Assembly (NCBI GenBank): GCA_038087875.1
Contig: CM075996.1
Span: forward strand, 3,412,001 to 3,476,000
Length of the DNA stretch: 64,000 nt
Source: Malacoraja senta
Lineage: Eukaryota
Direction of reading: 5' to 3'
This document shows positions 6,130-61,519 of the stretch, one piece after another (the first letter of the stretch is position 1; the number at the start of each line of letters is the position of its first letter). The position numbers and the translations under genes are program-made. Below the pieces are notes generated by a model, which was given only the letters and a program-made list of their open reading frames with translations, was not told where the DNA came from and did no database searches.

Positions 6130-6976
6130 ATTATGGATATGTCCCCTCAAATCAATGCTACATTACAGGCTTGGATGCTAAAACTGCTGACTTTCTATGT
6201 ACGAAGAACTTTTCGATGAAGATCCATTCGCAGACAAAACAGCTGAGATCAGGAACAGCTCACAGATGGATTCAATGAGGCAAAATGCAGACAATGGTAG
6301 GAGCTAATAGAAACAGACTTACGACATAGCAGCAGGATGGCATGGGGACATTGAGATGTCTCGGTAATGACCCCACCCACAGTAAACCACGTGGAAATAT
6401 GACTGCTAACCAGGTTGCCCACCAGTTGTTGCCAAACAGCTAGAGTAGTGGTTAGAAACCTCCACCCCCAAAGGTTGTTGATGGCAACAACCGAAACTAC
6501 AAATGGTACATCGAACCTTTCACCATGGATGAACTCAACAAAGCCCTGAATGTGATGAAACCTAACAAGGCAGCTGGCTTAGACATCAGAACTGAGATGT
6601 TGCAACATCTGGGTCCCATAGCACGAGAATGGCTGCTGGAAATGTTTAAAATCTGCATAGCAACCATCTCCATTCCACAAGTCTGGCGGAAATCCATGGT
6701 TGTTTACCAAAACCAGGCAAAGATGCCAATCTTCCCAGCAGCTACCGGCCTATATCCCTGCTGTGCCACCCATACAAACTGATGGAAAGATGCATACTGA
6801 ACCGCATCACGCTGGATGTAGACGATGTCTTGATACCTGAACAGGGTGGGTTCCGCCACGGAAAGTCAACAACAGGACCACTGCTGAACCTCACTCAACA
6901 CATTGAAGATGACTTTGAGTGAAAGCTGATCACAGGTACAGTATTTGTAGACTTGTCCGCAGCATATTACACTGTA
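6130..6976 (+). mobile_element. RTE-X-like LINE fragment (pre-RT and RT N-terminus)
   Basis: MDELNKALNVMKPNKAAGLD...IPQVWRKS, then EQGGFRHGKST and VDLSAAYYTV; ends abruptly at the next repeat. Confidence 0.8.
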
Positions 6977-7725
6977 CACCTACCGACTTGCGGCGGAGAA
7001 GCATGCACTGCGTACGATCTCCGCAGAGGCACAGATGTGGCACTGGCTGTGGCAGTGATGGCAGAACGTCGTCTGACACACGAGCGAACAAATTGCTACA
7101 TTGTACATGTTAATGGTGTAAAAAGGATATCTGATGGCATTAATTACTGCAGTACCAGGACGACAATCAGTCGTGTTCTCGAGATTTGATGAATGTATTC
7201 TGACCAAAGAAATACAAAGCTAACTGCAACTCAAATTTTCCTTTCTCAAATAGTCATAACGCTAACAGTCACATAACGTCCAGTAAATTAATGAATGCAT
7301 ATGTGTCTTTTTATAATATTGCACACAAAATTATGACAAAGGGGGTCAAATTTCAAATTCCTTCAAAAAAGTCGACAAGCACTTTATTGGGTTCGAGACT
7401 AAAAAAAATCATGAATAAAATAATATCAACAAAAAATACAAAGATAACATATTGATGGCAAGTTTCTGAAAATGGCATCAGAATACAAATACATTTTGTG
7501 TAACGGTTATCGCATGCTGTGTACACCAGTGACCTGGTACAGATTGATGTGTCGATACTATATGTTACCATACAGATTATGCATGCTGCACATTCCTAAT
7601 GTCACACATACTGCTTGGCACAGTAAGTGCACGTATTTATTCCTTTCTACGTTTAAGTATACCGCATGGAACAATAAAATTGCAAACACCGTTTCCACTT
7701 CATTCACCTGATCATGTAGTAGAAT

Positions 7726-8900
7726 GGGGTTGGGTTGGTATTGATGGCACTGCCCTGAGCTGGTTCATCTCCTACCTCAAAGGTAGGAGTTTCTCGACTA
7801 ACATAGGCAACTCATTCTCCTCCCCAGCTAATCTGTGCTGTGGGGTTCCACAAGGTTCCATCCTTGGCCCCATTCTCTTCTCCCTGTATATGCTCTCCTT
7901 AGGCCAAGTCATTGAAAGGCACGGCATTTCCTTCCATTGCTACGCAGACGATACACAACTCTATCTCCCCCTGAAGCCCAAAAAACAATCAAATCTGTTT
8001 AACCTTACCCACTGCCTCGAGGATATAAAGTGTTGGATGGCCCAGAACTTCCTCCAACTAAACGAGAGTAAGTCTGAGGTCATTCTTCTCGGCCCCTCGG
8101 ACTCAATCAAAATGATAGCAGGCAGCCTTGGAAGCCTTAACCCACTACTCAAACCTCACGTCAAAAACCTTGGCGTGATATTTGAATCAGCACTGAAATT
8201 TGACAAACAAGTCAATGCCGTGGTAAAAGCTAGCTTCTTTCAGCTTCGGACGATAGCTAAAATAAAACAATTCCTCCAGTTTGATGACCTGGAAAAGATC
8301 ATCCACACATTCATCTCCTCCCGCCTAGATTACTGGAACTCCCTTTACACTGGCATCAGCCAATCTTCCCTGTCCCGCCTGCAACTGGTCCAAAACGCCG
8401 CAGCGAGACTCCTGACGGGCACCCGAAAAAGGGACCACATCACCCCGATCCTGGCCTCTCCCTGTGCGGTTCCGTATAAACTTCAAGATCCTCCTCCATG
8501 TCTACAAGGCCCTCAATGGGCTTGCCCCCACCTACATAAAAAGTCTTCTCACCCACCACTCCACCTCCAGGCCCCTCAGATCGGCCGACTTGGGGTTGCT
8601 GAATATCCCACGGTCTAGGCATAAGCTCAGGGGCGACCGCGCCTTTGCGGTTGCATCCCCTAGACTGTGGAACAGCATCCTCTTTCCCATCAGAACCGCC
8701 CCCTCCATCGACTCTTTTAAGTCAAGACTAAAGACTTAACTATACTCCCAAGCCTTTCCTGACGTCCTCTGAGTGAGGGCTACATGTAGATATGTATGTA
8801 GTTTGATTTTGTTGTGCTATTCTTATAACAAATGTAAAGCACTTTGGCCAACGATTTGTTTATTAAATGTGCTATATAAATAAATGTGACTTGACTTGAC
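7726..8900 (+). mobile_element. 5'-truncated L2 LINE with RT domain
   Basis: GVPQGSILGPILFSLY, CYADDTQLY, QLVQNAAARLL, PRLWNS; (TTGAC)n tail; TSD tagaat at 7720-7725 and 8901-8906. Confidence 0.93.
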
Positions 8901-14779: not shown

Positions 14780-17160
14780 TACCAAACATTTTATTATTGT
14801 CACATGCACCAAGATACAATTGAAACTTTTGATTTGCATGCTATCCCAGTATACACAAGTACATAGGTAGTGCAAAAGAGAAAATAAACAGACTGTAGGA
14901 TATGGTATTACACCTACAAAGAAATGTACAGATTAAAAAAAACCTGCAAGAGCCACAACCAGATAGATTGGAATTCATTCTTAGCATACAAGAGGTCCAT
15001 GCTAGAATCTTATAACACCAGCTAAGAAGCTGATTTAAAATCTGGTAGCTTTCGTGCTTATGTATCTTCTGCCCAAACAGGAGATGCGAAGAGAGAATAA
15101 CCGAGGTGTGAATGATCCTTGATTATGCAGGCTACTTTCCAGAGGCAGCATGGTATCATTGGAATCAATTAGGCCAGAGGTAGGTTAGACTAGTTTGCAT
15201 GGTGGACTTTGCTGCATTCACAATTCTGTAATTTCTTGCAGTTTAGGGCAGAGAAGTTGCCATACCAAACTGTGATGCATCTACTTAGGATGTTTTCTAT
15301 GGTGCATATGTAGAAATTGGTAAGAGTTAATTGAGACATGTTAAATCTTCTTAGCCTTCTGAGGAAGAAGTAAGAGGCATGGGTGGTTTCTTGGCCGCAC
15401 ATCAATGTGGTTGGATCAGGCCAAAGAGTGAATGATATTTACACCTGGAAATTTGAAGCTCTCAACAATCTCTACTTCGGCACCATTGATACAGGCTGTA
15501 GCGTGTACACCACTCAGCTTCCTGAAGTCGACAACTAGTTCCTTTTTTCTGACCTTTTTTTCTGAGAGAGAGAGAGGTGTCTTGACATCGTGTTACTCTG
15601 CTTCCCGTCTCCTTCCTGTACTTCATCTCGTCATTTTTTTGAGATCTGGCCCATTGCAGTAATGTCATTGTAAATGGAGAGTAGAATTTGGCTGCAGAGT
15701 TGTGAATGCAGAGTACAGTGCCCCCCCCCCCCACATAATGTTTGAAACAAAGACCCATTAGTTATTTATTTGTCTCTGTACTCCAGTTTGAGATTTGTAA
15801 TAGAAAAAAAATTAGTTAAAGTGAACATGGTCAGATTTCATTCAAGGCTATTTTTATACATTTTGGTTTCACCATGTCAAAATTACAGCTGCGTTTATAC
15901 ATAGTCTCCCCATTTCAGGGCATCATAATGTTTGTGACACATGGCTTCACAGCTGTTTGTAATTGATCAGGTGTGTTTAATTGCCTCTTTAATGCAGGTA
16001 TAAGAGAGCTCTCAGCACCTAGACTTTCCTTCAGTCTTTCCTTCACCGTTGGAAACTTTTAATGCTGTTTATCAACATGAGGACCAAAGTTGTACCAATG
16101 AAAGTTAAATAAGCCATTATGAGACTGAGAAACAAGAATAAAACTGTTGAGACATCAGCCAAACCACAGGCTTACCAAAATTAACTGTTTGGAACATAAT
16201 TAAGAAGAGAGCACTGGTGAGCTTACTAATCGCAAAGGGACTGGCAGGCCAAGGAAGAGCTCCACAGCTGATGACAGAAGAATTCTCTCTATAATAAAGA
16301 AAAATCCCCAAACACCTGACAGACAGATCAGAAACACTCTTTTGTCACTGACTACTGTCCACAGAAGACTTCATGAACAGAAATACAGAGGCTATACTGC
16401 AGGATGAATCTACTGGTTAGCCACAAAAATAGGATGACCAGGTTAGTTTGCCAAGAAGTACTTAAAGGAGCAACTACAGTTCTGGACAAAGAACTTGTGG
16501 ATGGATGAGACGAAGATTAACATATCAGAGTGATGGCAAGAGTAAAGTATGGAGCAGAGAAGGAGCTGCCCAAGATACAAAGCATATCACCTCATCTGTA
16601 AAACACAGTGGTGGGGGTGTTATAGTCTGGGCATGTATGGCTGCTGAAGGTACTGGTTCATTTATCTTCATTGATGATACAACTGCTGATGGTAGTAGCA
16701 TAATGAATCCTGATGCGTATAGACACATCCTATCTGCTCAAGTTCAAACAAATGCCTCAAAATTCATTGGCCGGCGGTTCTTTCTACAGCAAGACAATGG
16801 TCCCAAACATACTGCTAAAGCAACAAAGGAGTTTTTCCAAAACTAAAAAATGGTGTTGAGAATTATCGCAGATGATTTTTTTTGTCACCTATCCTCATCG
16901 ATTATGGTCTATGTGTCAGGAAGTTAAGGATCTAGCTGCTGACTCCTAGGACCAGGAATTGGAAGACGAGTTTGGCTGGCATTATGGTATTGAAGGCAGG
17001 AATGTAGTCAATAAACGCAGAACTGTAGTCTGACACAGCTGTTATTGTTATCTGGATGTTCCAGGGATGAATGTAGAGGCAAGGAGATGCATCTGTCGCG
17101 TACTTGTTGCAGCAGTAGGTGAATTGCAATGGATCATGGCTGTCTGGGAGGTTGGAGTTG
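14780..17160 (-). mobile_element. Decayed Rex1/Babar-like LINE interrupted by a Tc1 element
   Basis: YFFLRRLRRFNMSQLTLTNFY...TVWYGN (15190-15405) and DYIPAFNTIMPAKLV (16932-17129) flank the Tc1 insertion. Confidence 0.75.
15716..16850 (+). mobile_element. Tc1 transposon, right end missing, transposase pseudogene
   Basis: TA|CAGTGCCC terminus, long IR/DR-type TIR, KHSGGGVIVWACM and QQDNGPKH motifs; same family as 46507-48319. Confidence 0.92.
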
Positions 17161-24230: not shown

Positions 24231-24649
24231 ATTAACATTATGTTATATTGGGGAAAGTTTTTCAAAGTCCTGCAGAGCGAGACAGACAGAAGTTGGGCCA
24301 TTTAGTCTCTTGGATGTAGTTTCACAGTTTACTGCACATGGCTGATCTCTACTTCAGTCTCACTTACCTGCTCTTGATCCTATCTCACAATATCCTATTC
24401 AACAAGTGACCGTCAACCTCAGTCCTCAAAACTTTCAGTTAAGCCAACACGAACTGCCTTTTCTGAGCTTATCCTAACACTGTTTGCTCACCAAACATTA
24501 AAAAAAAAAAATACTGAAGGGAATGGAAAAAAACTTTTTTTTGATGCTCCATGCCATAGTCTGAATAAGTCTCCCTGAAATTGGCGACATTTGCGGACCC
24601 TTGACGCAAGGCTTAAAAGTCATACAAAATCAATAAGCATGATCCTGAT

Positions 24650-26300
24650 TGTAGATGGTTTATGCATGCAACCAATCACATAGCTACCTCACCACTACTA
24701 ACCCCGCCTTAAGTATCATTTATAATAACGCCTGCTTCTCCTTCTGCGCAGTACAGTAGCAGACTGGAGTCAGTGACTACTCATGTATTGTTTAACTCTG
24801 TATACTTATTAAAGACTATTATAATGTCACACGTGTGTAATGACTATTTACATGGTGTCAGATAGCCCACGCACAATGCCAATTCTACTGGCCAGGAATG
24901 GCTAAGTACATTCGGGACCGTTTCTCGTCTTGCTCTACCTGCAACAGCCTCGCGTCCCACCAGCAAAGGCAGCCCCTTTTGCAACAACCCGCGCCTGCCC
25001 TGGCCTGGACCTCGGTGGCCGCCAACATTTTCGAGTGGCGTGGTAAACACTGCCTCGTCCTTGCTGACTCATACTCGAACTGGTTCGAGGTTGACCTTCT
25101 GACCTCCCTCACGTCCGAGATGGTCATCCGTAAGCTGAGGAAACATTTTTCCACTTTCGGCTCGCCTGTCCGTCTGCAGACCGACAACGGCAGGCAGTTT
25201 ACCAGCCAGGAGTTCAAGAACTTTGCCAACAAGTGGAACTTCCTCCACTTCACGAGCAGCCCCGAGTACCCGCAGAGTAACGGGCTTGCTGAGCGGGCTG
25301 TCCGGAGTGCCAAACTACTAATGGAGCAAGCACGCCTGGCGAACTCCGACTTTTACCTCGACCTCCTGAACCTAAGGAACATTCCCAGGGACGCAACCCT
25401 AGGCTCACCTGCTCAGCGGCTGATGTCCAGAACAACAAGACCACCGATTCCGATTGCTCAACACAAGCTGCTGCCTCGAGTGCTGGAGCCTGCCTCCGTC
25501 CAGATGCGCATTCAGGCTAAGCATGACATCCAAAGACGGTCACATGATAGATCGTGCAAGCCTCTCAAGCCTCTGCTGCCTGGACAGGCCGTTCGTCTAC
25601 ATACTGCTAGCGGATATTCGCGTCTGGCCACCGTGGTTGGCATTGCCGATGCGCCTCGTTCGTACCTTGTGGACTTTGAAGGGACTGTCTACCGCAGGAG
25701 TCGTCAGCAACTGCTTGCAGTTCAGGAGCCGCTCCCGCAGGCAGCCGGACCTTACGCTCCGCCACTGCAGTTCCAGCCATCCGCTGCTGATCCCGTTGCC
25801 GGCCCCTGCATGCCTCAGTCCCCTCGTGTGTTTTGTTCACCTTCGCATGGGTCGCCCATTGCTAACCGTTTTCCTAGCCCTCCTGCACGTTTGTCCCCCA
25901 TGCCGCTTTCGGTTTCCCCTCCGGCTTCGTCGCCTCCGGGTTTGGGTCTTTCTGGTGAGGGGGGGAGGGTTGGTCCGTACGCGCTCGGGCCGTGTCAGCA
26001 AGCCGTCTGTTCGGTATGGTGATTTTGTTTAAGTCGTTGCCATAGTTATCCACCATGTTTAATCATGTGTTCATGTTTAATCTTCTAAGGGGAAGGATGT
26101 AGATGGTTTATGCATGCAACCAATCACATAGCTACCTCACCACTACTAACCCCACCTTAAGTATCATTTATAATAACGCCTGCTTCTCCTTCTGCGCAGT
26201 ACAGTAGCAGACTGGAGTCAGTGACTACTCATGTATTGTTTAACTCTGTATACTTATTAAAGACTATTATAATGTCACACGTGTGTAATGACTATTTACA
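24650..26300 (+). mobile_element. Young internally deleted Gypsy LTR retrotransposon (1651 bp)
   Basis: 203-bp TG...CA LTRs at 24650-24852 and 26098-26300 with one visible mismatch; 5-bp TSD ctgat (24645-24649, 26301-26305); PBS tggtgtcaga; PPT aaggggaagga. Confidence 0.97.
24898..26022 (+). CDS. Gypsy integrase ORF (partial Zn-binding domain plus rve core), probably inactive
   Basis: YWPGM...CSTC, LVLADSYSNW, QTDNGRQF, YPQSNGLAERAV; the first catalytic D position reads N (VAANIF); the typical terminus TRSGRVSKP..RYGD is in another frame. Confidence 0.85.
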   Translation: MAKYIRDRFSSCSTCNSLASHQQRQPLLQQPAPALAWTSVAANIFEWRGKHCLVLADSYSNWFEVDLLTSLTSEMVIRKLRKHFSTFGSPVRLQTDNGRQFTSQEFKNFANKWNFLHFTSSPEYPQSNGLAERAVRSAKLLMEQARLANSDFYLDLLNLRNIPRDATLGSPAQRLMSRTTRPPIPIAQHKLLPRVLEPASVQMRIQAKHDIQRRSHDRSCKPLKPLLPGQAVRLHTASGYSRLATVVGIADAPRSYLVDFEGTVYRRSRQQLLAVQEPLPQAAGPYAPPLQFQPSAADPVAGPCMPQSPRVFCSPSHGSPIANRFPSPPARLSPMPLSVSPPASSPPGLGLSGEGGRVGPYALGPCQQAVCSVW

Positions 26301-26580
26301 CTGATGTTTGTCGAAGGAACACAAAAACTGCAAATGGGTACAAATACAAGGACACTCAAAAACATAGCATTGTACAAGTTGAAAGATTATAATTTTTCCT
26401 GAGTCCCCACGATAATCTGAATAAACACTTAAAGCTGTGAAATAATGAATGTAATTATTTTCTGTGGCCACAAATATTACAGATGCAGGAAAGTCGGCTG
26501 AAATACCAATCTTTCAAAATTTCAAGGACTGAACAAAAGATATGTTGCAAAATAAAAAGTTTCTCACATTTATCAATAAA

Positions 26581-27195
26581 CGAGTTCGGTATTTAGACTG
26601 CGCATGCCCAGGTCATAGGTCACTCACCATACTCATTGTCGTTAGCGGATCTGCTGTGTGTTATCAGACCTTCGTTTCATTCGTATTTTCCAGCTTTGAT
26701 TCTTCTAGGTAAGAAAATACTGCTTTCAACCTATGAATTAGTTGTATTTATTGTTCCCTTGCATAAAGCTACGATGATTTTGTCGTTTTTGTTGCTTAAT
26801 GCTTCGGTGAGTGCTTTATGCTTCGTGCTGCTCCGTGGGGTCGGTGTATGTGGTCGAGGTCGTGTCTCCGGCGCTGCGGGCGCTGTCGAGTTGCTGCTTG
26901 GCCGTCCCGTCCCCTCCTGGGTGTCCCGTCCCTGTCCGGAGGTGTCGAGGTTCGATCCTGGCTGCGGATGAGGTGCGGGTCTGTGTGCGTGCTTCTTCCA
27001 CTCGCATCTGCCCCCTCTCTCGCTGTTACACCCCGCTCTCCCGCTACCTGGCACCCCCGATTAAATATATTTTTACACATTAATTATGAATAAAAATAAG
27101 AACTTATACACAGTTTCTTCAGCCAGCGATTCGTTCGCTTTTTCTTTATGGCATATGACCTTCGATTCCGTGCGTTTTTCAGAATACCGAACTCG
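26581..27195. mobile_element. MITE-like element with 13-bp perfect TIR, superfamily unresolved
   Basis: cgagttcggtatt (26581-26593) and aataccgaactcg (27183-27195); CpG-rich interior; no transposase; no clear TSD. Confidence 0.75.
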
Positions 27196-27239
27196 CTAAC
27201 TGGTTGGTCCCAACCCAATTGCTTCACATTATCACTGAC

Positions 27240-29145
27240 CCCAACTTAATTTACGAATTCGCAGATGACACCACCATAGTGGGCCGGATATCAGATAATG
27301 ATCAGACGGAGTACAAGAAGAAGTTTGAGAAACTCGTAACCTGGTGCCAAGACGAGAACATTTCCCTCAATGTCAGCAAGGCAAAGAAGATTGTAATCGA
27401 CTTCAGGTAGACATGGTTAATATCTTCAAGTTCTTAGGAGTAAATATCACCAGCAACTTGTCCTGGACCAGGCATACTGAAGCAATGGCCAAAAATGCAC
27501 ACCAACACCTCTTCTTCCTAAGAAGGCTTAGGAGGTTCGGCACACTCCCAACAACTCTCACCTATCCGAGTTGACTGTGCCTGAACCCCTCTGTCAGTGG
27601 ATCATCAGCTTCCTGACAGACAGGAAGCAGCATGTGAGGCTGGGAAAGCACATCTCGGACGCGCAAAAGCTCAGCATAGGAGCACCGCAAGGCTCCGTAC
27701 TCTCTCCCCTCCTCTCTCCACACCAACGACTGCACCTCCACAGACACCTCTGTCAAGCTTCTCAAGTTTGCGGATGACACAACCCTGATTGGACTGATCC
27801 AGGATGGGGAGGAATCTGCCTACAGACAGGAAGTGTCACAGCTGGCATCCTGGTGCCATCGCAACAACCTAGAGCTCAATGCTCTTAAGACGGTGGAATT
27901 GATTGTAGACTTTAGGAGAGCTTCCCCTCCCCTCACCCCACTCACCATCAACAACACCACAGTCACATCTCTGGAGTCTTTTAAGTTCCTGGGAACCATC
28001 ATCTCCAAGGACCTTAAGTGGGGGGCTACCATCGACTCCAGTCAAAAAGGCCCAACAGAGGATGTACTTCCTATGCCAGCTGAGGAAGCACAATCTGCCA
28101 CAGGCAATGATGGTCCAATTCTACACGGCCATTGTAGAGTCTGTTCTCACCTTCTCCATCAAGGTCTGGTTTGGCTCAGCCACCAAGCACGACACCCGGA
28201 GGCTGCAGCGAATCGTCCGATCAGCAGAGAAGGTTATTGGTTGCAACCTTCCCTCCATTGATGAACTGTACACTGCAAGGGCCAGGAAGCGAGCGGGCAA
28301 GATCATCTCTGACCCCTCTCACCCTGGCCACAAACTCTTTGAATCACTTCCCTCTGGAAGGCGACTCCGGACAGTCGAAGCTGCCACAGCCAGACATAAA
28401 AACAGTTTTTATCCACGAGTAGTTGCTCTACTCAACAGCCAAAAATCTGTAGCCTCCCTTTGATCTGGTATTTTGTTGGTTCACATGCTTGATCAATGGT
28501 GATTTATCATTAATGTTTTATTATTATTATTAATGTTTAGTGTTTTCCGAGTCATTCGTTACTGTCACTGTATGTCATGTTGTTACTTGTGGGCAGAGCA
28601 CCAAGGCAAATTCCTTGTATGTGAATACTTGGCCAATATACTTACTTACTATGTCTACAGATGGGCTGCAGAAAGCATTTTATGGCAATGCGGCACAGCA
28701 TGGTTTGAGACGAGTTCCATCCAAGATCGCAAAAAATTGCAGAGAATTGTAGACACAGCTCAGACCATCATGCAAACCAACCTCCATCTACACGTGACAC
28801 GACCTCGGCAAGGCCACCAGTATAATTAGTGTCTCCCTCTTCCCCCCTTCCTAACAGGCAAGAGGTACATAAGTAGGAAAGTGCATACCTCCATATTCAG
28901 GGACAGGTTCTTCCCAGCTGCTAACAGACAATTGAACCATTCTATTACCAACTGGAAAGCGGTCCTAACCTACCATCTACCTCATTGGAGACCCTTGGAC
29001 TATCTTTAATCGGACTTTATCTTGCACCAAACTTTATTGTGTATCTGCAAACTGTGGACGGCTTGATTGCAATCATGTAGTCTTCTGCTGACTGGATAGT
29101 GCAACAAAGAGCTTTTCACTGTACCTCGGTACACGTGACAATAAA
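27240..29145 (+). mobile_element. Older Rex1/Babar-like LINE 3' part, split by a younger insertion
   Basis: EFADDTTIVGRI, FKFLGVNI, HLFFLRRLRRFG; resumes at ~28653 (DRKKLQRIV) and ends in gtacacgtgacaataaa. Confidence 0.8.
27566..28648 (+). mobile_element. Young 5'-truncated Rex1/Babar LINE
   Basis: GAPQGSVLSPLL, KFADDT, FKFLGTII, FESLPSGRR; (TACT)n tail; possible TSD ctat (27562-27565, 28649-28652). Confidence 0.9.
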
Positions 29146-32277: not shown

Positions 32278-33291
32278 GGTTCCGGAAGTGGCGGCGCTGT
32301 CGTACAGCAGCGGCTCGCCTGCAGTCCGTCTGTTTTTACTTTTTTTGTTGTTTTCTTTTGTCCTGTTTTAGTTAAATTTTAGTTTATTGGGTTGTGTATG
32401 TGTGGGGTGGGGGGGGGTGAAACATGACTTTTGTCTCTTCCTTCAGGGGAATGCGACTTTTTCTTGTCGTATCCCCCTTCTCTGCCTCCGTCTGCGCTGA
32501 GGCCAAAATGGCGGAGCTGCCGGCCTCCAACTCCAACTGCGAGCGACCGACCTCGAGGCTCCGGAGGCAGAGCCAGGACTTACCAGCGCGAGGCTGGCCA
32601 ACTTCGGGGCTGCGGTGGCGTTCCGGCGGTGGCGACCGAGGACACTGGTGGCGACCTGAATCCGGAGGCTCGGCCGCAGCTGGCCCAGTGGACGACATCT
32701 TCGGGAGCGCGAGGCTGGCCAACTTCGGGGCTGCGGTGGCGTTCCGGCGGTGGCGACCGAGGACACTGGTGGCGACCTGAATCCGGAGGCTCGGCCGCGG
32801 GCCCAGTGGACGACACCGTCGGGAGCGCGCAGGTCACAGGTTGGTGACCTGTTTTTCTGGGGCTCCCGCAACTACAGCTGCGTCCGCTGGACTGGAGGGC
32901 GGCAGCTTCGGCAGCTTCGACCACCCCGGGCCGCGGAGTTTGAGCCGGCCCGTCGCGGAGCACGGATTCGGGCCGCGGAGTTTGAGCCGGCCCGTCGCGG
33001 AGCACGGATTCGGCCGCGGGACTGGCTTACCGTCGCCCGGCGGGGTCACAGCATCAGAAGCCTGGATCGCCTCAGCGCAGAGGGAGAACAAAGCGGGAAG
33101 AGACAGAGACTTTAAGACTTTTGCCTCCATCACAGTGAGGAGGTGCCTGGTGAACTCACTGTGGTGGATGTTAATTTGTGTTTATTGTGTGTTTTGTCAT
33201 TTATTATTATATGTATGACTGCAGGCAACGAAATTTCGTTCAGACCGAAAGGTCTGAATGACAAATAAAGGAATCTCGAATCTCGAATCTC
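32278..33291 (+). mobile_element. Young GC-rich non-autonomous retroelement with internal tandem duplications
   Basis: Possible TSD gaaaa (32273-32277, 33292-33296); 121-bp and 42-bp internal repeats; 3' hairpin, aataaa and (gaatctc)3 tail. Confidence 0.75.
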
Positions 33292-44760: not shown

Positions 44761-46506
44761 TTACTTGCTGCTTCCTAGAAATCCAGGCCAGAGATTACAA
44801 AACACCAGAGCGAGCCAGACGGCTATTAGAACCACCAGGCACCAGAGGGAGGGGGAAAAACACAAAAGAAGCCCCACTTCAAGAACATACAGGAGGATAT
44901 TGCCAGAACGCAAGATCTCCCTGAGCCCTTGAACCCATTATTTGAATATATCATACAACACAATATATAAATAACTCCTATCTTTTCCAAATCACTTTCT
45001 TCAACATTTATGAATGACATTAAAATTTAATATACAAATAAAGGTGTCCTTTTTTTCTTTCCTGGTTCCCAATGATATCAAATCTCTAATCTTGGCATTT
45101 TCTAGCTATTTAGAAAGAAAATATTCCCCAAATAAACCTCCGACATACAGGGAAAAAGCGTTATACCATCATAAGGTATTTTGAGATTCAATTATTATAA
45201 CAAATTATATCCTACCACCTCAAATTTTATCTCCACAGTTTCATTATGAGTACAATGATCATTATTAAAATATTTAAATTAGTTCAAACTATTATATTCC
45301 CTCCTTCCTGTATTCCATTTCCTCCTCACTATATTAAGCACACAGCCAGCAGCACAATCTGCTTTTTCATTTCACTGGATTTCACTGGCGAGAAAGATCT
45401 AGATGACTCACGCTCACAGCACCCGACAGTTATAACATCTTCACAATTGTGAAATAAAGAGCAGACTGTAGTCGTAATGCATTATCCTCTGCACATGCAC
45501 ATGTGCTCTCTATATGCGTAATTCTTTAAAATGTTGAAATATATTCGTGCATTTTTTTTTAATGTTAGTTCAATCATGTCTCATTACACCTCAAAAAATA
45601 TCCAAAAAAATTGACAGCGGCAGATTTATTATTGTATCAAAGACAATATAGGAAATCTAATATTTCTTTGCAAAATTGGAGACAAACAAGTATAAGTAAT
45701 ATTACACAAAAAGAGAAAAACATACAGGGTACACTTTTGGAAAGTTGCAAGGTCAATTGAAAGACATTGATGAAAACACTCACGGACTTGTCGCCGATAT
45801 GAGAAAAGTATGCTTAAATATTTATGATATTTTAATTACCAGTCATGCTGCAGAATTTCTGCAGATAGTCAATAGATAAAAATCTGAAATAAACGTCAAG
45901 CTGAATCGCGAGCTTTTCCACGGGTGTGGTGAAACTGATAGATGCACAGAACCAACACACAAAATTAAAATTTATTTTAGACATGTTTTTTAATTTGTTG
46001 CCTCCCAAGATTGTAAACCAAAGAAAAGCATTCCAAATTTCCAGAGTTCTAAAAACCTACGCAAAGTATGACATAACTCGGCCTACCTACCCCACAAGCA
46101 ATTTATCTATATGATCAGGAATTTTAAGTAGGTAGAAAGTAAAATCCACCTTTATTCAACCTAATCATGAAAAACATGCAGATTTTAAATGGTCAAAATA
46201 AATCACAAATACTACAAGTAACACTGTCCTTTACTATCACTATATATCCCACAACTTATGCGTTATGTATTTAATAGCTTTCCTGAAAGATAGATGCTTT
46301 AATTATAGAAATAGAGGGGTTTTCTGGCACACATTTCTTCATGTGTGAGAAACAGACTAGATTAAGGAAACAAGTAGAGAAAGGAAGCATCCAAGATTCT
46401 AAGATATGTGTCACGTGATTCCAGCAGCTAAGCTCCTTGTATAATGGAGGAAGTCGAGAGTCCCAGCAGAGTGCACAAAATGGCTGCCTTGTCTGTACTA
46501 CAGCTA

Positions 46507-48319
46507 CAGTGCCCTCCATAATGTTTGGGACAAAGGCCCATCATTTATTTATTTGCCTCTGTAATCCACAATTTAAGATTTGTAATAGAAAAAAAAAATC
46601 ACATGTGGTCAAACTCAGCGGGTGAGGCAGCATCTATGAAGCGAAGGAATAGACGACGTTTCAGGTCGAGACACTTCTTCAGACTAATGGGGGGGGAAGA
46701 AAGGAAGAGGCCGAGACAGTAGGCTGTGGGAGAGCTGGGAAGGGGAGGGGAAGGGATGGGGAAGGAGGGAGAAAGCAATTGGAGGTCAATGTTCACACCG
46801 CTGGGGTGTAAACTACCCAAGTGAAATACGAGGTGCTGCTCCTCCAATTTGCACCTAATTTTTCACTTGGGTAGTTTACACCCTAGCGGTATGGTTGTCC
46901 CACTGCAAAATGTCCTTTATGCAAATATAAGGGAGCTCTCAGCACCTAGTCTTTCCTCCAGTTTTTCCATCACCGTTGGAAACTTTTATTGCTGTTATCA
47001 GCATGAGAACCAAGGTTGTGCCAATGAAAGTCAAAGACCCCATTATGAGACTGAGAAACAAGAATAAAACTGTTAAGACACATCAGCCAAACCTCGGGCT
47101 TACCAAAATCAACTGTTTGGAACATCATTAAGAGGAAAGAGAGCACTGGCGAGCTTACTAATCGCAAAGGGACTGGCAGGCCAAGGAAGTCCTCCACAGC
47201 TGATGACAGAAGAATTCTCTCTATAATAAAGAAAAATCCCCAAACACCTGTCCGACAGATCAGAAACACTCTTCAGTATTTGGATTTGTCAATGACCACT
47301 GTCTGCAGAAGACTTCATTAACAGAAATAGAGGCTACGCTGCAAGATGCAAACCACTGGTTAGCCACAAAAATATGATGGCCAGGTTATAATTTGCCAAG
47401 AAATACTTAAAAGAGCAACCACAGTTCTGGAAAAATGTCTTGTGGACAGATGAGACGAAGATTAACTTATATCAGAGTGATGGCAAGAGCAAAGTATGGA
47501 GGAGAGAAGGAACTGCCCAAGATCCAAAGCATACCACCTCATCTGTGAAACACAGTGGTGGGGGTGTAATGGCCTGGGCATGTATGGCTGCTGATGGTAC
47601 TGGCTCACTTATCTTCATTGATGATACAACTGTTGATGGTAATAGCTTAATGAATTCTGAAGTGTATAGACACATCCTATACGCTGAAGTTCAAACAAAT
47701 GCCTCAAAACTCATTGGCCAGCGGTTCATTCTACAGCAAAACAATGATCCCAAACATACTGCTGAAGCAACAAAGGAGTTTTTCAAAGCTAAAAAATGGT
47801 CAATTCTTGAGTGTCCAAGTCAATTACCCAATCTGAACCCAATTGAGCATGCCTTTAATATGCTGAAGAAAAAACTGAAGGGGACTAGCCCCCAAAACAA
47901 GCATAAGCTAAAGATGGCTGCAATACAGGCCTGGCAGAGCATCACCAGAGAAGACACCCAGCAACTGGTGATGTCCATGAATCAGACTTCAAGCAGTCAT
48001 TGCATGCAAAGGATATGCAACAAAATACTAAACATGACTACTTTCATTTACATGACATTGCTGTGTCCCAAACATTATAGTGCCCTGAAATGGGGGGGGG
48101 GGGGGGGGGGGACACACGTCGGTGGGTGGGCTATGTATAAACACTGGTGTAATTTCTACATGGTGAAACCAAAATGTATAAAAATACCCTTTATTAAAAT
48201 CTGACAATGTGCACTTTAACCACATGTGATTTTTTTTCTATTGCAAATCTCAAATTGTGGAGTACAGAGGCAAATAAATAAATGATGGGTCTTTGTCCCA
48301 AACATTATGGAGGGCACTG
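46507..48319 (+). mobile_element. Near full-length Tc1 (DD34E) transposon, transposase pseudogene
   Basis: TA|CAGTGCCCTCCATAATG ... CATTATGGAGGGCACTG|TA; WTDETK, QQNNDPKH (second D reads N), PNLNPIEH; N-terminal half disrupted. Confidence 0.95.
46609..46893 (-). mobile_element. Penelope-like element 3' end inserted in the left Tc1 TIR
   Basis: EEQHLVFHLGSLHPSGVNID resembles a GIY-YIG C-terminus; followed by a hammerhead-like core; inverted duplication at the 5' junction. Confidence 0.8.
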
Positions 48320-48759
48320 TATCTGCCTTAAATCAACCAAAGCTAACAACATAATTAGCTTCCCTGGAATACTGCTACCAAACATTTATAGAGCCTACTG
48401 ATCGGAAAGGAAACAGTTGACAGAAGACACCAGAGACCCTATGACCAGTGACATGCCCGAGGTCACTTGGAAGATTCTATATGACAACAAAGTCAATCAA
48501 CACCACATTTGCAACCACCTGTGGTGGTATTATGGGTCCAAACTGGGCAACACTTGCTCTGGGATCATCATGGGCATCAGGCTGACTGACCAGCAACCTA
48601 AAGAAGCCCAATTCAGATGGACCATCTGGGACTGTTTTAAAGAAAATGTCTCCCTTCATCCGACACACACGGCTGCAACAGATTGTTCATACCATATTGC
48701 CCAATTTTTCACATACAAGGTGCAAGAATTAGTTCATGCAAACTTACAAGTACTGAAAT

Positions 48760-56338: not shown

Positions 56339-56465
56339 TCGGAATGAGAGATATAGGGGAAAAAATGAATGAAAGATAAGCCCCAAGAGGAAAAAAAAGT
56401 AATGATGATCATTGCTAGCTGTGGGCTAGGTAGCAGAAAATAAAACGAGTTCTAGGACAATGAAA

Positions 56466-57025
56466 ACTCACCAGGACGACAGTCATAGAGATTGTGTGAA
56501 TGTGAGTGTGTGCTGTGAGCGGCGGTTTGTGGGGCCGGCCGCGCCGCGCGCTGCGCGCAGTCGCACTGGCGCTCCCGTGCAGCGGCTCCAGTGCAGCGGC
56601 TGCAGCTGCTGCAGCGCGCGCGCGGGGCCGCCCCGCAGGGGCAGAAAACACTCGGCGCCAAAAAAAACACACAAACAAAACAGCCGGAGGGAGGGGGGGG
56701 GGGGGGGAGAGAAAAACAAAACAAAACAACAAAAAACTCCCTCACCTCACACAATGAAAGTATTGAAGAGAAAAACAACAACAACAACGAGAGAAAAAAA
56801 CACCCATCAAGGACTTGGAAACTTTCCTTCGCACGACAAATGTAAGATTCGCTTACCTTCGCGTCGAGTTAAAGCGTCGGCTCATCGATTTTTTTTTTTT
56901 TTTAAACCCTCCTCCCTCAAGAACTACCCGCCTTTTGCTCTATTGCAGCCTCCGCAACAAAGATGGCAGCGTGTGTGTGTGTGTTGGGGTTGGGGGGGGG
57001 GGGGGGAAGTATGCAAATTAGCCCG
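56466..57025 (-). promoter_or_regulatory. CpG-island promoter with candidate first exons of an unidentified minus-strand gene
   Basis: Non-repeat CpG-dense block 56515-56660; donors CTG|gtgagt at 56472 and AAG|gtaagc at 56857; YY1-type aagatggc near 56960; octamer atgcaaat at 57011. Confidence 0.65.
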
Positions 57026-57299
57026 ATACCCCCCCCTCACCATAAGACTATTACAAACATATATTTATCCCTAAGTTGGACGAGCAAAAAAAAAAAAATG
57101 CCGGAGGAACGAACGCAGCGGGACGGGCAACATCTGTGGAGAGAAGGGACTGCCTGAGTTGCGTGTCTATTTTCGGCGTAAACCAGCATCTGCAGTTCCT
57201 TCCTACGCATTAACATTTCATCCAGATTCCCCTCAAATGTATTAACTAAAACAACGATGGTTATGTCTTTATTATCAACGGGACATGGCTTTTTTTTTT

Positions 57300-57695: not shown

Positions 57696-60186
57696 TGATC
57701 TGCAGTTCCTTCCTACGCATTATTTGCACAGCAACCTGCTCGGTGTAATTTTCGGCGTTGGCTGTTTTGCAGCGAAGCGGACGCTTGGTTTTCCACGCCT
57801 TTCATTACTCTAATAATAAAGTTCACGTTTGCATCTATTTTATTTTGCATATTGAAAATTATGCATTTGTTTAAGAAATTTTGCAAATTCAAATTACTAG
57901 ATAGCTCCCCCAAAACACTGCATTGAGATGCTAAATTCAACCCTCACTGGGCTAAATATTTGCATCGGCTGTTGCTGACAGCATCGAATGCTTGCATTTT
58001 TCCAACAGTCCCACGCATTTCTGTGGGCGGCCACCAGTGTCGCTGCTGAGCACAACGTGAACGTCGAGCGGCTGCAGAAGTTGCGGTAGAACGAATGGGA
58101 GACACGTGGCAAAGAACAGTTCCTGCGCAAAGTTGCCTTCCGTCCTCTGTGACAACATGCAATTTTACCCACATTTCAAAACAACTTTAAGCATGGACGT
58201 TAGAATTTTATTTTGGCATTGTCTGGAGCTTTGTTAAAGTAAACTAATTTACGAAAATAAATTGTAGACTGCAAATATAACTTGAGAATACAAGTTGATC
58301 AAAATTATTATTTAACATCGTTGTACTCTAACAGGCAATGGAAATCATGTTTTTATTAATAATATCAAGCAACCAAAAGGATAGATTTTTGAAAAGGGCA
58401 GATTTTCAGATATATATTCGATAAAATTCACTTAGATAAAATTCACATTACACTAAAACATGCTTTCTAAAAATAATTCCACAAACTGGGGGGGAGACAA
58501 GTCAACAAAAATACTAATATTAAGGTACACAAAGGGAAAATACCTGCAAATAAAATAAGCAATAACAGCAATAGTTTTACATTTAGAAAGAAGAGTAGGT
58601 TTAAGAGAAATGTGAGCTCTGGAAGAAAGAGCTAAAATAATTAGACATAATTTGTGTCTCGAGGTCCAATATATTCACCACCTCAATTTTTTTAGTGCAC
58701 TTAGGAAATTCTATAGGCATGCCAAGGAATGTCCATTGATTTTATCATTTAAACAGAAAAATTCTCAAAATCTTTTAGTGCGAAGATGAAAAAAGTAATA
58801 AGCAAAGCAGTGAATTTTAATGACCATAAAGGTCTGTTCCATTGCTATTTGAATTACTATCTGCATAGTTTTTGTTTGTATTATTACAACCTTTTTGTTT
58901 CAGCAACCAACACAGTGGACACAGTCCACCTGACATTATCTCACTGAATAAACAGTCAACCATTTACCAACTTTGAAAATAAATTATTTGGTCCTCAACC
59001 TGAAATGTTAGCTGTTTCTCCCACAGATGCAGCCTGACCCACTGACCATCTTCTGTTTTTAATTTAGATTTCCAGCATCTGCAGTTTTTTTCATTTACCA
59101 GATTCCGTGGGGGGGATTTCCATATTTGTCAACTTTCGCAGTGCCTGGTGCTTTTCTTTCGAGTTCCCAACTGGCTGTGGTTGGGCACTCTCTGAATAAC
59201 CATGCTTTTATAGAACTGCTTCATCGGCAGGGACACAACATAAAGGGACAGTCCCCGATTCAAGTGTGACCTAGTGACTGGGAACCAAACTCAAAAAAGT
59301 TTCCATTAATTTAATTAATCATCTACATTATTTCAGGGGGATCCACACCCTCTCAAACTCACATCCCTCTGCTGGTTTCCCCCACCCACTGATTTTTTTT
59401 TACTTCCCCCGTCTCTATATAAAACTCTACCAGGTCACTGCTTCATGAACTCTTGCTGGCATTATCCTAGATTCCAAGTGGCTCCATCTTAGCCTCTCCC
59501 CAACAGTTCTTTTTGAGTATAGGCTTTTTAAGCAAAGGCTGTTCATCAGCCTTGAAACAGTGCTCAAGGACACAGCAGGCGTGGAACTTAAATTTAAATC
59601 TGTAATTAAAAATGAGTCTCAGCAATGAAGACCATGAATCAACTTGATTGTTGTTAATACCCCAACTGGTTCACCGATGTCCTTGAGTGAAGAAAATCTG
59701 CCAACCTTACCCCATCAAGCCTGTTTGCGACTCCAGGTCTGCACCAAAATAGATTACTCTAAAATGGACAAGCAAACTGCTTAGTAAGGCAGTATTGGGA
59801 ACAGATCTACCCAGAGATGTTCATGATCCATGAATAAGCAAACTAAAAGAAAATATACAGTCAATAGCTTCTATCAATCAGGTGATATAATCAGAAAATG
59901 ATGGAAATACTCAGCAGCTTAGCCAGCATCTGTGGTGACAGAAACAGAATAATATTTTAGGTTACTTTCCCCAATTGTGATCACAGATCAGAAAGGCAAC
60001 AGTAATGGACTTTATATAATCTAACTTGATAGTCTCAAGAAGATAAGAAAAAGACAGAGTTAGGTCGTGTGACCAATTTTCAACCTGCTCCCCATTTTAG
60101 GTCAGTGATATGTTTCTCTCTTTACACTACAATGTCCGACCTATTGAGTAACTTCAGTGATTTTGTTTTGTTTTTATTTCTCTCTC

Positions 60187-61519
60187 TAAAAGATGAAATA
60201 GCCGCACATTTGGATAGCAGTAACAGGATCGGTCTGAGTCAGCATGGATTTACGAAGGGGAAATCATGCTTGACTAATCTGGAATTTTTTGAAGATGTAA
60301 CTAAGAAAATGGACAAGGGAGAGCCAGTGGATGTAGTGTACCTGGACTTTCAGAAAGCATGTGATAAGGTCCCACATAGGAGATTAGTGGGCAAAATTAG
60401 GGCACATGGTATTGGGGGTAGAGTGCTGACTTGGATAGAAAATTGGTTGGCAGACAGGAAACAAAGAGTAGGGATTAACGGGTCCCTTTCAGAATGGCAG
60501 GCAGTGACTCGTGGGGTACCGCAAGGCTCGGTGCTGGGACCGCAGCTATTTACAATATACTTCAACGATTTGAAGAAGGGATTCAAAGTAACATTAGCAA
60601 ATTTGCAGATGACACAAAGCTGGGTGGCAGTGTGAACTGTGAGGAGGATGCTATGAGATTGCAGGGTGACTTGGACAGGTTGGGGAAGTGGGCAGATGCA
60701 TGGCAGATGAAGTTTAATGCGGATAAATGTGAGGTTACCCACTTTGTAGCAAAAAACAGGAAGACAGATTATCTAAATGGCGTCAAGTTGGGAAAAGGGG
60801 AAGTACAACGGGATCTGGGGGGTCCTTGTTCATCAGTCTATGAAAGTAAGCATGCAGGTACAGCAGGCAGTGAAGAAAGCGAATGGCATGTTGGCCTTTA
60901 TAACAAGAGGAGTCGAATATAGGAGCAAAGAGGTCCTTCTGCAGTTGTACAGAGCCCTAGTGAGACCATACCTGGAATATTGTGTGCAGTTTTGGTCTCC
61001 TAATTTGAGGAAGGACATTCTTGCTATTGAGGGAGTGCAGCGTAGGTTTGCAAGGTTAATTCCTGGGATGGCGGGACTGTCATATGCTGAGAGAATGGAG
61101 CAGCTGGGCTTGTACACTCTGGAGTTTAGAAGGATGACAGGGGATCTTATTGAAACATATAAGATTGTTAAGAGTTTGAACACGCTAGAGGCAGGAAACA
61201 TGTTCCCGGTGTTGGGGGAGTCCAGAACCAGGGGCCACAGTTTAAGAATAAGGGGTAAGCCATTAGAACGGAGACGAGGAAACACTTTTTCTCGCGGAGA
61301 GTTGTGAGTCTGTGAAATTCTCTGCCTCAGAGGGCGATGGAGGCAGGTTCTCTGGATGCTTTCAAGAGAGAGCTAGATAGGGCTCTTAAAGATAGCGGAG
61401 TCAGGGGATATGGGGAGAAGGCAGGAACGGGGTACTGATTGGGGATGATCAGCCATGATCACATTGAATGACGGTGCTGACTCGAAAGGCCGAATGGCCT
61501 ACTCCTGCACCTATTGTCT
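60187..61519 (+). mobile_element. Young 5'-truncated CR1 LINE (RT domain plus 3'UTR)
   Basis: QHGFTKGKSCLTNL, YLDFQKA, GVPQGSVLGP, KFADDTKL, VRPYLEYCVQFWSP; few frameshifts; ends in cctattgtct. Confidence 0.95.

Follow-up and report, generated by a model that had tools for sequence, protein, structure and literature searches.

TRIM-type families, BARE-2, the mouse IAP 1-delta-1 and ETn elements and Morgane have a common layout of LTR, PBS, internal remnant, PPT and LTR, one that could be moved in trans. Non-autonomous families of this kind are defined by many copies of one deleted structure. Deleted derivatives are frequent and some of them amplify, as in the mouse (IAP 1-delta-1, ETn; PMC6466679); Morgane is named in PMC2844528. 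BARE-2, without a functional gag, is described in a study of sugar beet, in which 15 of 115 non-autonomous families keep pol remnants, 7 of these without GAG/PROT (10.64898/2026.03.01.708851). These seven families make too strong the premise of the original prediction for the locus described here, namely that non-autonomous elements keep gag or nothing. Our partial search of the literature, PMC5753468 included, found no integrase-only LTR family described; the supplementary tables of the sugar-beet study may list INT-only families.

Three further systems bear on the comparison. Of 395 HIV-1 proviruses with a single deletion, 334 were attributed to strand transfers in minus-strand synthesis, a type that spares both LTRs, and further deletion classes arising from aberrant strand transfers start near the PBS (PMC12657518). 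In Culex, fragmentary copies of the Mag lineage have LTRs that are 99-100% identical (PMC3286476). Finally, Ginger1, Ginger2 and the Ginger-derived host genes share integrase-only coding with our locus, and theirs is combined with inverted terminal repeats, 4-bp specific target-site duplications (TSDs) and neither PBS nor PPT (PMC2836005).

The locus lies in a stretch of 64,000 nucleotides from Malacoraja senta, referred to below as the window. It is a derived, internally deleted Ty3/Gypsy LTR copy inserted by an integrase. We compared it with protein collections, with metagenome contigs and with contigs from four of 24 sequencing runs (X1, X2, X3 and X6), where X1 may be the source sample, X2 is another sample of organism A, the one that matches the window best and is taken as its own, and X6 is organism C; the results from these runs rest on the 32 of 6579 pieces and the 24 of 800 loose ends that were listed. 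No RNA run is among the 24, which is silent on expression. The features, in window positions, are the following.

24645-24649, no strand: left TSD, CTGAT, read from the sequence
24650-24852, + strand: 5' LTR, 203 bp, TG...CA, direct repeat
24721 and 24808, in the 5' LTR: a TATAA-like motif and ATTAAA, respectively, motif matches only
24840-24905, + strand: out-of-frame upstream ORF with AUGs at 24840, 24852 and 24876, overlapping the ATG at 24898
24853-24862, + strand: truncated PBS of 10 nt, its start; the same 10 nt occur in three longer relatives, which then diverge
24861-24862, + strand: deletion junction, a 2-nt overlap placed from loose contig ends and from distances in three relatives
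24898-26022, + strand: 374-aa ORF whose ATG is an internal Met of the integrase; it keeps C-x2-C, without the two His of HHCC
25024-25026, + strand: first DDE position, Asn (residue 61); Asp in 214 of 218 aligned homologues
25183-25185 and 25291-25293, + strand: second DDE Asp and Glu, both retained
25957-25969, + strand: G-rich run at which the frame departs from the family frame; indel variation in contigs
26087-26097, + strand: PPT (polypurine tract), AAGGGGAAGGA, 11 bases, adjoining the 3' LTR
26098-26300, + strand: 3' LTR, 203 bp, single mismatch against the 5' LTR
26301-26305, no strand: right TSD, CTGAT, read from the sequence

Direct TG...CA LTRs, whose sole mismatch over 203 bp is 24706 G / 26154 A, and a TSD within the 4-6 bp range are those of a Ty3/Gypsy element, as are the PPT and the start of a PBS, the latter kept as its first 10 nt only. 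A 5-base TSD match would arise by chance with a probability of about 0.001 at the composition of the flanks. Immediately 3' of the 5' LTR stands TGGTGTCAGA, which was labelled as, and is putatively, of the tRNA-Leu type. The only Pfam matches are to the integrase core (rve) and, under the curated cut-off, to the zinc-binding domain, of which the second half (profile positions 29-54 of 59) is covered. Gag, protease, RT and RNase H, which an autonomous Ty3/Gypsy element has, gave no Pfam match in the element. No second copy of the LTR or of the PBS/integrase junction occurs elsewhere in the 64-kb window, and Rfam gave 0 matches there. Much of this had been anticipated: the original prediction had listed the nearly identical LTRs, the 5-bp TSD, the PPT, the in-frame ATG with its 374-aa ORF and the missing gag, protease, RT and RNase H, and all of these stand after the Pfam and frame analyses; the LTR ends and TSD likewise uphold its reading of an integrase-made insertion of a Gypsy LTR element.

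The join connects a point within the PBS to one within the zinc finger of the integrase. Four X2 contigs diverge from the window before 24861, with loose letters that code for the zinc-finger histidines absent from the window copy; record 25 of X6 has 23 unlike letters ahead of 24861, and record 9 of X2 tracks the LTR and departs from the window sequence after 24862. Since contigs diverge either before 24861 or after 24862, these two positions fit both sides and make up the 2-nt overlap. An overlap of this length is expected by chance in 16% of joins and does not tell the mechanism. We examined 9 of 19 related loci on metagenome contigs for PBS and spacing, and 3 of the 9 (L001, L002 and L005) have the same first 10 PBS bases, with PBS-like sequence going on in all three. 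Between PBS base 10 and the site that matches window codon 24862 they have 3026, 3119 and 3020 nt, respectively. Compared with an element of roughly 4.7 kb, the window copy is thus short of about 3.0-3.1 kb, or about two thirds of the interior: the remainder of the PBS, the leader, gag, protease, RT, RNase H and the integrase start, together with both zinc-finger histidines. In two of these three relatives gag starts about 150 nt past the start of the PBS; the leader, absent from the window copy, is about 140 nt in L001 and L002. Two earlier statements have to be given up here: that all cis signals are intact (no more than 10 nt of the PBS and nothing of the leader are left), and that the integrase begins a few bases after the PBS (there is no spacer, and integrase sequence already takes in the final 2 nt of the PBS remnant).

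The integrase is that of a Ty3/Gypsy 'K02A2.6-like' protein, and the closest described elements are of skates and teleosts (Leucoraja erinacea LOC129697104 and LOC129711677; Amblyraja radiata), with 66-85% integrase identity to the skate clade and 50-56% to the teleost ones. These elements have a Mag-like single-ORF architecture; the window copy is without some 3 kb of it and its integrase is broken. There were 163 longer homologues, and the 120 listed are headed by a 697-aa protein that has RNase H and integrase (70%) and one from Leucoraja erinacea (66%); polyproteins of teleosts, about 1350 aa long, come next, at 50-56% identity among the matches listed. A search for proteins of similar length gave 77% as the best among the 120 of 186 matches listed, an Amblyraja radiata protein is 76% identical over the N-terminal part, and the best protein identities to the window are 77-85% overall. 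The homologues carry RVT_1, RNase H, Integrase_H2C2 and rve, with the integrase last in order; integrase downstream of RT and RNase H identifies them as Gypsy Pol proteins. A tree was built from 26 rows, selected for closeness and for a spread of named sources and including no labelled Mag reference; in it the window falls with Leucoraja and skate-like rows (support 100/100). The lineage groups with skate Gypsy elements, and the host is therefore probably a skate or ray. Short LTRs, a full length of about 4.5-5 kb, one ORF and a 5-bp TSD fit the Mag-type sizes given for Culex, a likeness and a placement by architecture only (PMC3286476). The Mag lineage also has a PBS of the tRNA-Leu or -Ser type.

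No window-like protein emerged from the collection: an exact look-up found no identical protein, and a search focused on the junction found 2 of 7 candidate proteins, neither of them window-like. The junction pattern occurred 0 times in metagenome contigs, and 0 of 22 candidate stretches in viral contigs were relatives of the window; both are collections not expected to hold this host. A 15-member cluster (P0121 and P0233-P0246; 141-384 aa) was considered, by its size, as an integrase-only family and rejected, as the His pair is present in 3 of 12 members that we read. Its integrase frames are about 85% identical to the window, lie on contigs of 1.0-2.8 kb and share the same substitutions; the cluster may represent a single decayed copy of a related species, sequenced many times. 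In Leucoraja erinacea LOC129697104 (P0002), a gag start of about 75 aa is joined directly to the region before the integrase, which may be an artefact of the gene model or a further copy, from a sister family, with an internal deletion; we gave it no weight as evidence. Locus L010 (7710 bp) would be a long single-ORF retroelement: it has an open frame of 2284 codons with a distant integrase match, and the first and last 111 bases of the contig are identical.

The parent family is abundant in the same organism. Contigs with upstream zinc-finger sequence and high depth are present, copies that continue upstream with an intact zinc finger are seen in organism A, in the four X2 contigs, and an upstream-intact copy is seen in organism C. 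One X1 integrase contig has a depth of 2089, or 61-90 times that of the flanks, a rough sign of tens of copies of the parent family and not an exact count. A single deletion event had been named beforehand as what a junction confined to this locus among full-length copies would mean; the part concerning longer copies holds, with pol sequence upstream of the junction in the same organism. Among the 32 of 6579 pieces listed none spans the junction, and several pass its site into upstream pol. Contig assembly drops minority alleles, however, and the lack of window alleles in X1 therefore does not prove a single copy. X2 gave no cover of the flanks, and no empty-site joint was found among the 15 of 29 joints listed; this does not speak for or against insertion polymorphism.

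It should be noted that the age of the copy is only loosely bounded. The LTR divergence of 1/203 is 0.49%, with a 95% interval of 0.012-2.7%. Using the epaulette-shark mutation rate of 7e-10 per base per generation (PMC10587355), this corresponds to 3.5 million generations, with an interval of 0.09-20 million; the rate is that of another species and its limits are wide. An interval of this width leaves the description 'very young' unproven. Other repeat pairs in the window are about 69-95% identical, and the copy is young relative to them.

Repeats of other kinds surround the element. Starting 270 bp to its right, a 630-bp high-copy repeat (26575-27202) has imperfect inverted ends of 20 nt and resembles a non-autonomous DNA transposon, and dozens of contigs end at 26574-26575 in all four runs (X1, X2, X3, X6). 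A Tc1/mariner-type element occupies 46501-48325, with inverted ends of about 110 bp (95% complementary over 96 nt) and frames for an HTH (47055-47318) and a 270-aa DDE_3 protein (47392-48204); a decayed relative lies at about 15700-16850 (88%). Fragmented non-LTR reverse-transcriptase frames (RVT_1) at 6650-8618, 27200-28463 and 60033-61307 are presumably L2-, Rex1/Babar- and CR1-like, going by their general resemblance. Tandem repeats of 121 bp and 42 bp occur in a GC-rich region at 32380-33220, where several open frames overlap and none of these has a Pfam match. In the 95 window frames of at least 85 aa, Pfam showed no host protein family. By eye, a GC-rich island at 56430-57100 may contain a first exon on the minus strand, with its end at a GTGAGT donor near 56470; should this exon be real, the gene would have the element in one of its introns, in antisense orientation.

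We think that the element is a one-off, or very low-copy, internally deleted copy of an abundant skate/ray Gypsy family with a single ORF and a length of about 4.7 kb, and we put the probability of this at roughly 0.7; such a loss would be an ordinary sort of accident. A full-length parent RNA would have been undergoing reverse transcription when the nascent DNA switched template between the PBS and the integrase region; the integrase of the parent itself would then have inserted the short product, giving the perfect ends and the TSD. The junction lies inside the PBS, the site of the second strand transfer, which points to an error of reverse transcription. Deleted HIV-1 proviruses are similar in having intact LTRs, one large deletion and a junction in the PBS region, but belong to another virus group, and the second-strand classes described for them begin upstream of the PBS or after a tRNA insert, whereas the window junction is inside the PBS (PMC12657518). 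Alternatively, a full-length copy could have inserted and lost the segment later, in the chromosome, by end-joining repair; a deletion of this kind leaves the same picture, and one copy cannot separate the two routes. Within the reading as a one-off copy we lean towards the template jump, with later loss by end joining the somewhat less favoured route. The ORF would still be open because the cut fell upstream of an internal Met and because little time has passed. For further mobilisation the copy is probably a dead end, because the leader, the gag region, which likely holds packaging signals, and part of the PBS are gone.

It is possible, if rather unlikely, that the element instead belongs to a small non-autonomous subfamily, in which a 1.65-kb form is copied in trans by the Gag and Pol of the parent, with the dead integrase as passive filler. 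Both LTRs, the PPT and 10 nt of the PBS are retained, a potential helper family is abundant in the same organism, and amplification of deleted derivatives is known elsewhere (PMC6466679; sugar beet, 10.64898/2026.03.01.708851); one of these, the mouse IAP 1-delta-1, loses 1.9 kb and, unlike the window copy, keeps a translated gag-pol fusion that helps in cis. Compared with the bulk of the family, the interior also has 13 or more differences over about 1096 sites (1.2%); in the LTRs there is 1 change over 406 sites. The probability of finding at most 1 of 14 changes in the LTRs is 0.075 unweighted and 0.16-0.24 with CpG weighting, a weak hint that the short form may have cycled more than once or may stem from a minor subfamily. 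Against this stand the shortened PBS, the loss of the leader and gag region, the lack of a further copy in 64 kb, and the fact that none of the 32 listed contig pieces spans the junction. Known non-autonomous families have many copies of their deleted structure, and the window copy is known from one locus.

A stronger form of this idea, which we regard as more doubtful, is that the 1.65-kb form is a spreading parasite of its parent: the 10-nt PBS would prime, leader and gag would be dispensable for packaging, and the dead integrase frame may even dampen the parent. If true, we would be looking at a newborn TRIM-like family of a cartilaginous fish, with both its deletion point and its helper identifiable.

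That the protein is useful, either as an integrase supplied to partners or as a dead integrase interfering with the parent family, seems very improbable. The frame is long (374 stop-free codons from the ATG; 392 aa from stop to stop, 24844-26022, the only long frame in the element), and its start codon at 24898 has a good context, with G at -3 and +4; three out-of-frame, overlapping AUGs precede it. HHCC and D,D(35)E are conserved functional motifs of these integrases (PMC5329712). Both His of the former are deleted, and they are present in 147 of the 164 homologues that extend that far (253 of 256 stored homologues were aligned for the ORF comparison). The D,D(35)E triad is broken at its first position, residue 61, which we take to be the first catalytic Asp from its conservation and, in part, from general knowledge of the motif; HMMER alignments to solved retroviral integrases are offset by three residues here and do not pin that Asp. 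The entire contig depth of X1, X2 and X3 differs from the window at this site. The second Asp and the Glu, kept in 243 and 244 of 247 homologues, respectively, are retained in the window copy. At the other end, the terminal RTRSGR...KP motif is in another frame, ending at 26032; of 256 proteins, which include many fragments, 133 have a similar motif within their final 40 residues.

Nor do the substitutions speak for a maintained protein. We took 13 sites within 24862-25957 at which at least 95% of the X1 depth is unlike the window, from 40 of 297 difference rows, leaving out 25965 (in the frameshifted run) and rows of other repeats. Eight of these window-specific differences are amino-acid-changing and five synonymous, with 5 being CpG-type transitions; 5/13 synonymous against a neutral expectation of 30% gives p 0.54, in a small sample with little power. 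The pattern would fit neutral decay, with no sign of purifying selection at this low power. Moreover, an integrase made free of Gag-Pol would not be packaged. A usable integrase ORF is therefore unsupported: with three separate lesions (no His pair, Asn at the first DDE position, tail out of frame), the ORF is most likely a relic and the leftover integrase gene most likely does nothing.

Collapse of a full-length element by the assembler is about as improbable, if not slightly more so. The family is a high-copy repeat, the internal junction is unspanned among the listed contigs, and two X1 flank contigs reach into the LTRs by 22 and 27 letters only, under the 31-letter rule. However, the 2 nt common to both sides of the join are too few for an assembler to merge, the TSD and both LTR ends are coherent, and the X1 flanks match the window with no other letters, at depths of 23 and 34. 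A Ginger-like DNA transposon or a domesticated Gypsy integrase gene can be dismissed: integrase is indeed the sole coding content, as in Ginger elements, but the ends are direct repeats with PBS and PPT rather than inverted repeats of 40-270 bp, a structure that rules out a Ginger transposon, the TSD is of 5 bp rather than CCGG/CCGT (PMC2836005), and the broken enzyme nests among Gypsy Pol proteins bearing RT and RNase H.

As a one-off copy, the element is a dated marker of a Gypsy family that was abundant in a batoid-like lineage, and a neat case of a deletion junction inside the PBS. Should the junction turn out to be multi-copy, 10 nt of PBS, the LTRs and the 3' end would suffice for mobilisation in trans, which would bear on the origin of miniature LTR elements, with the integrase still dead cargo.
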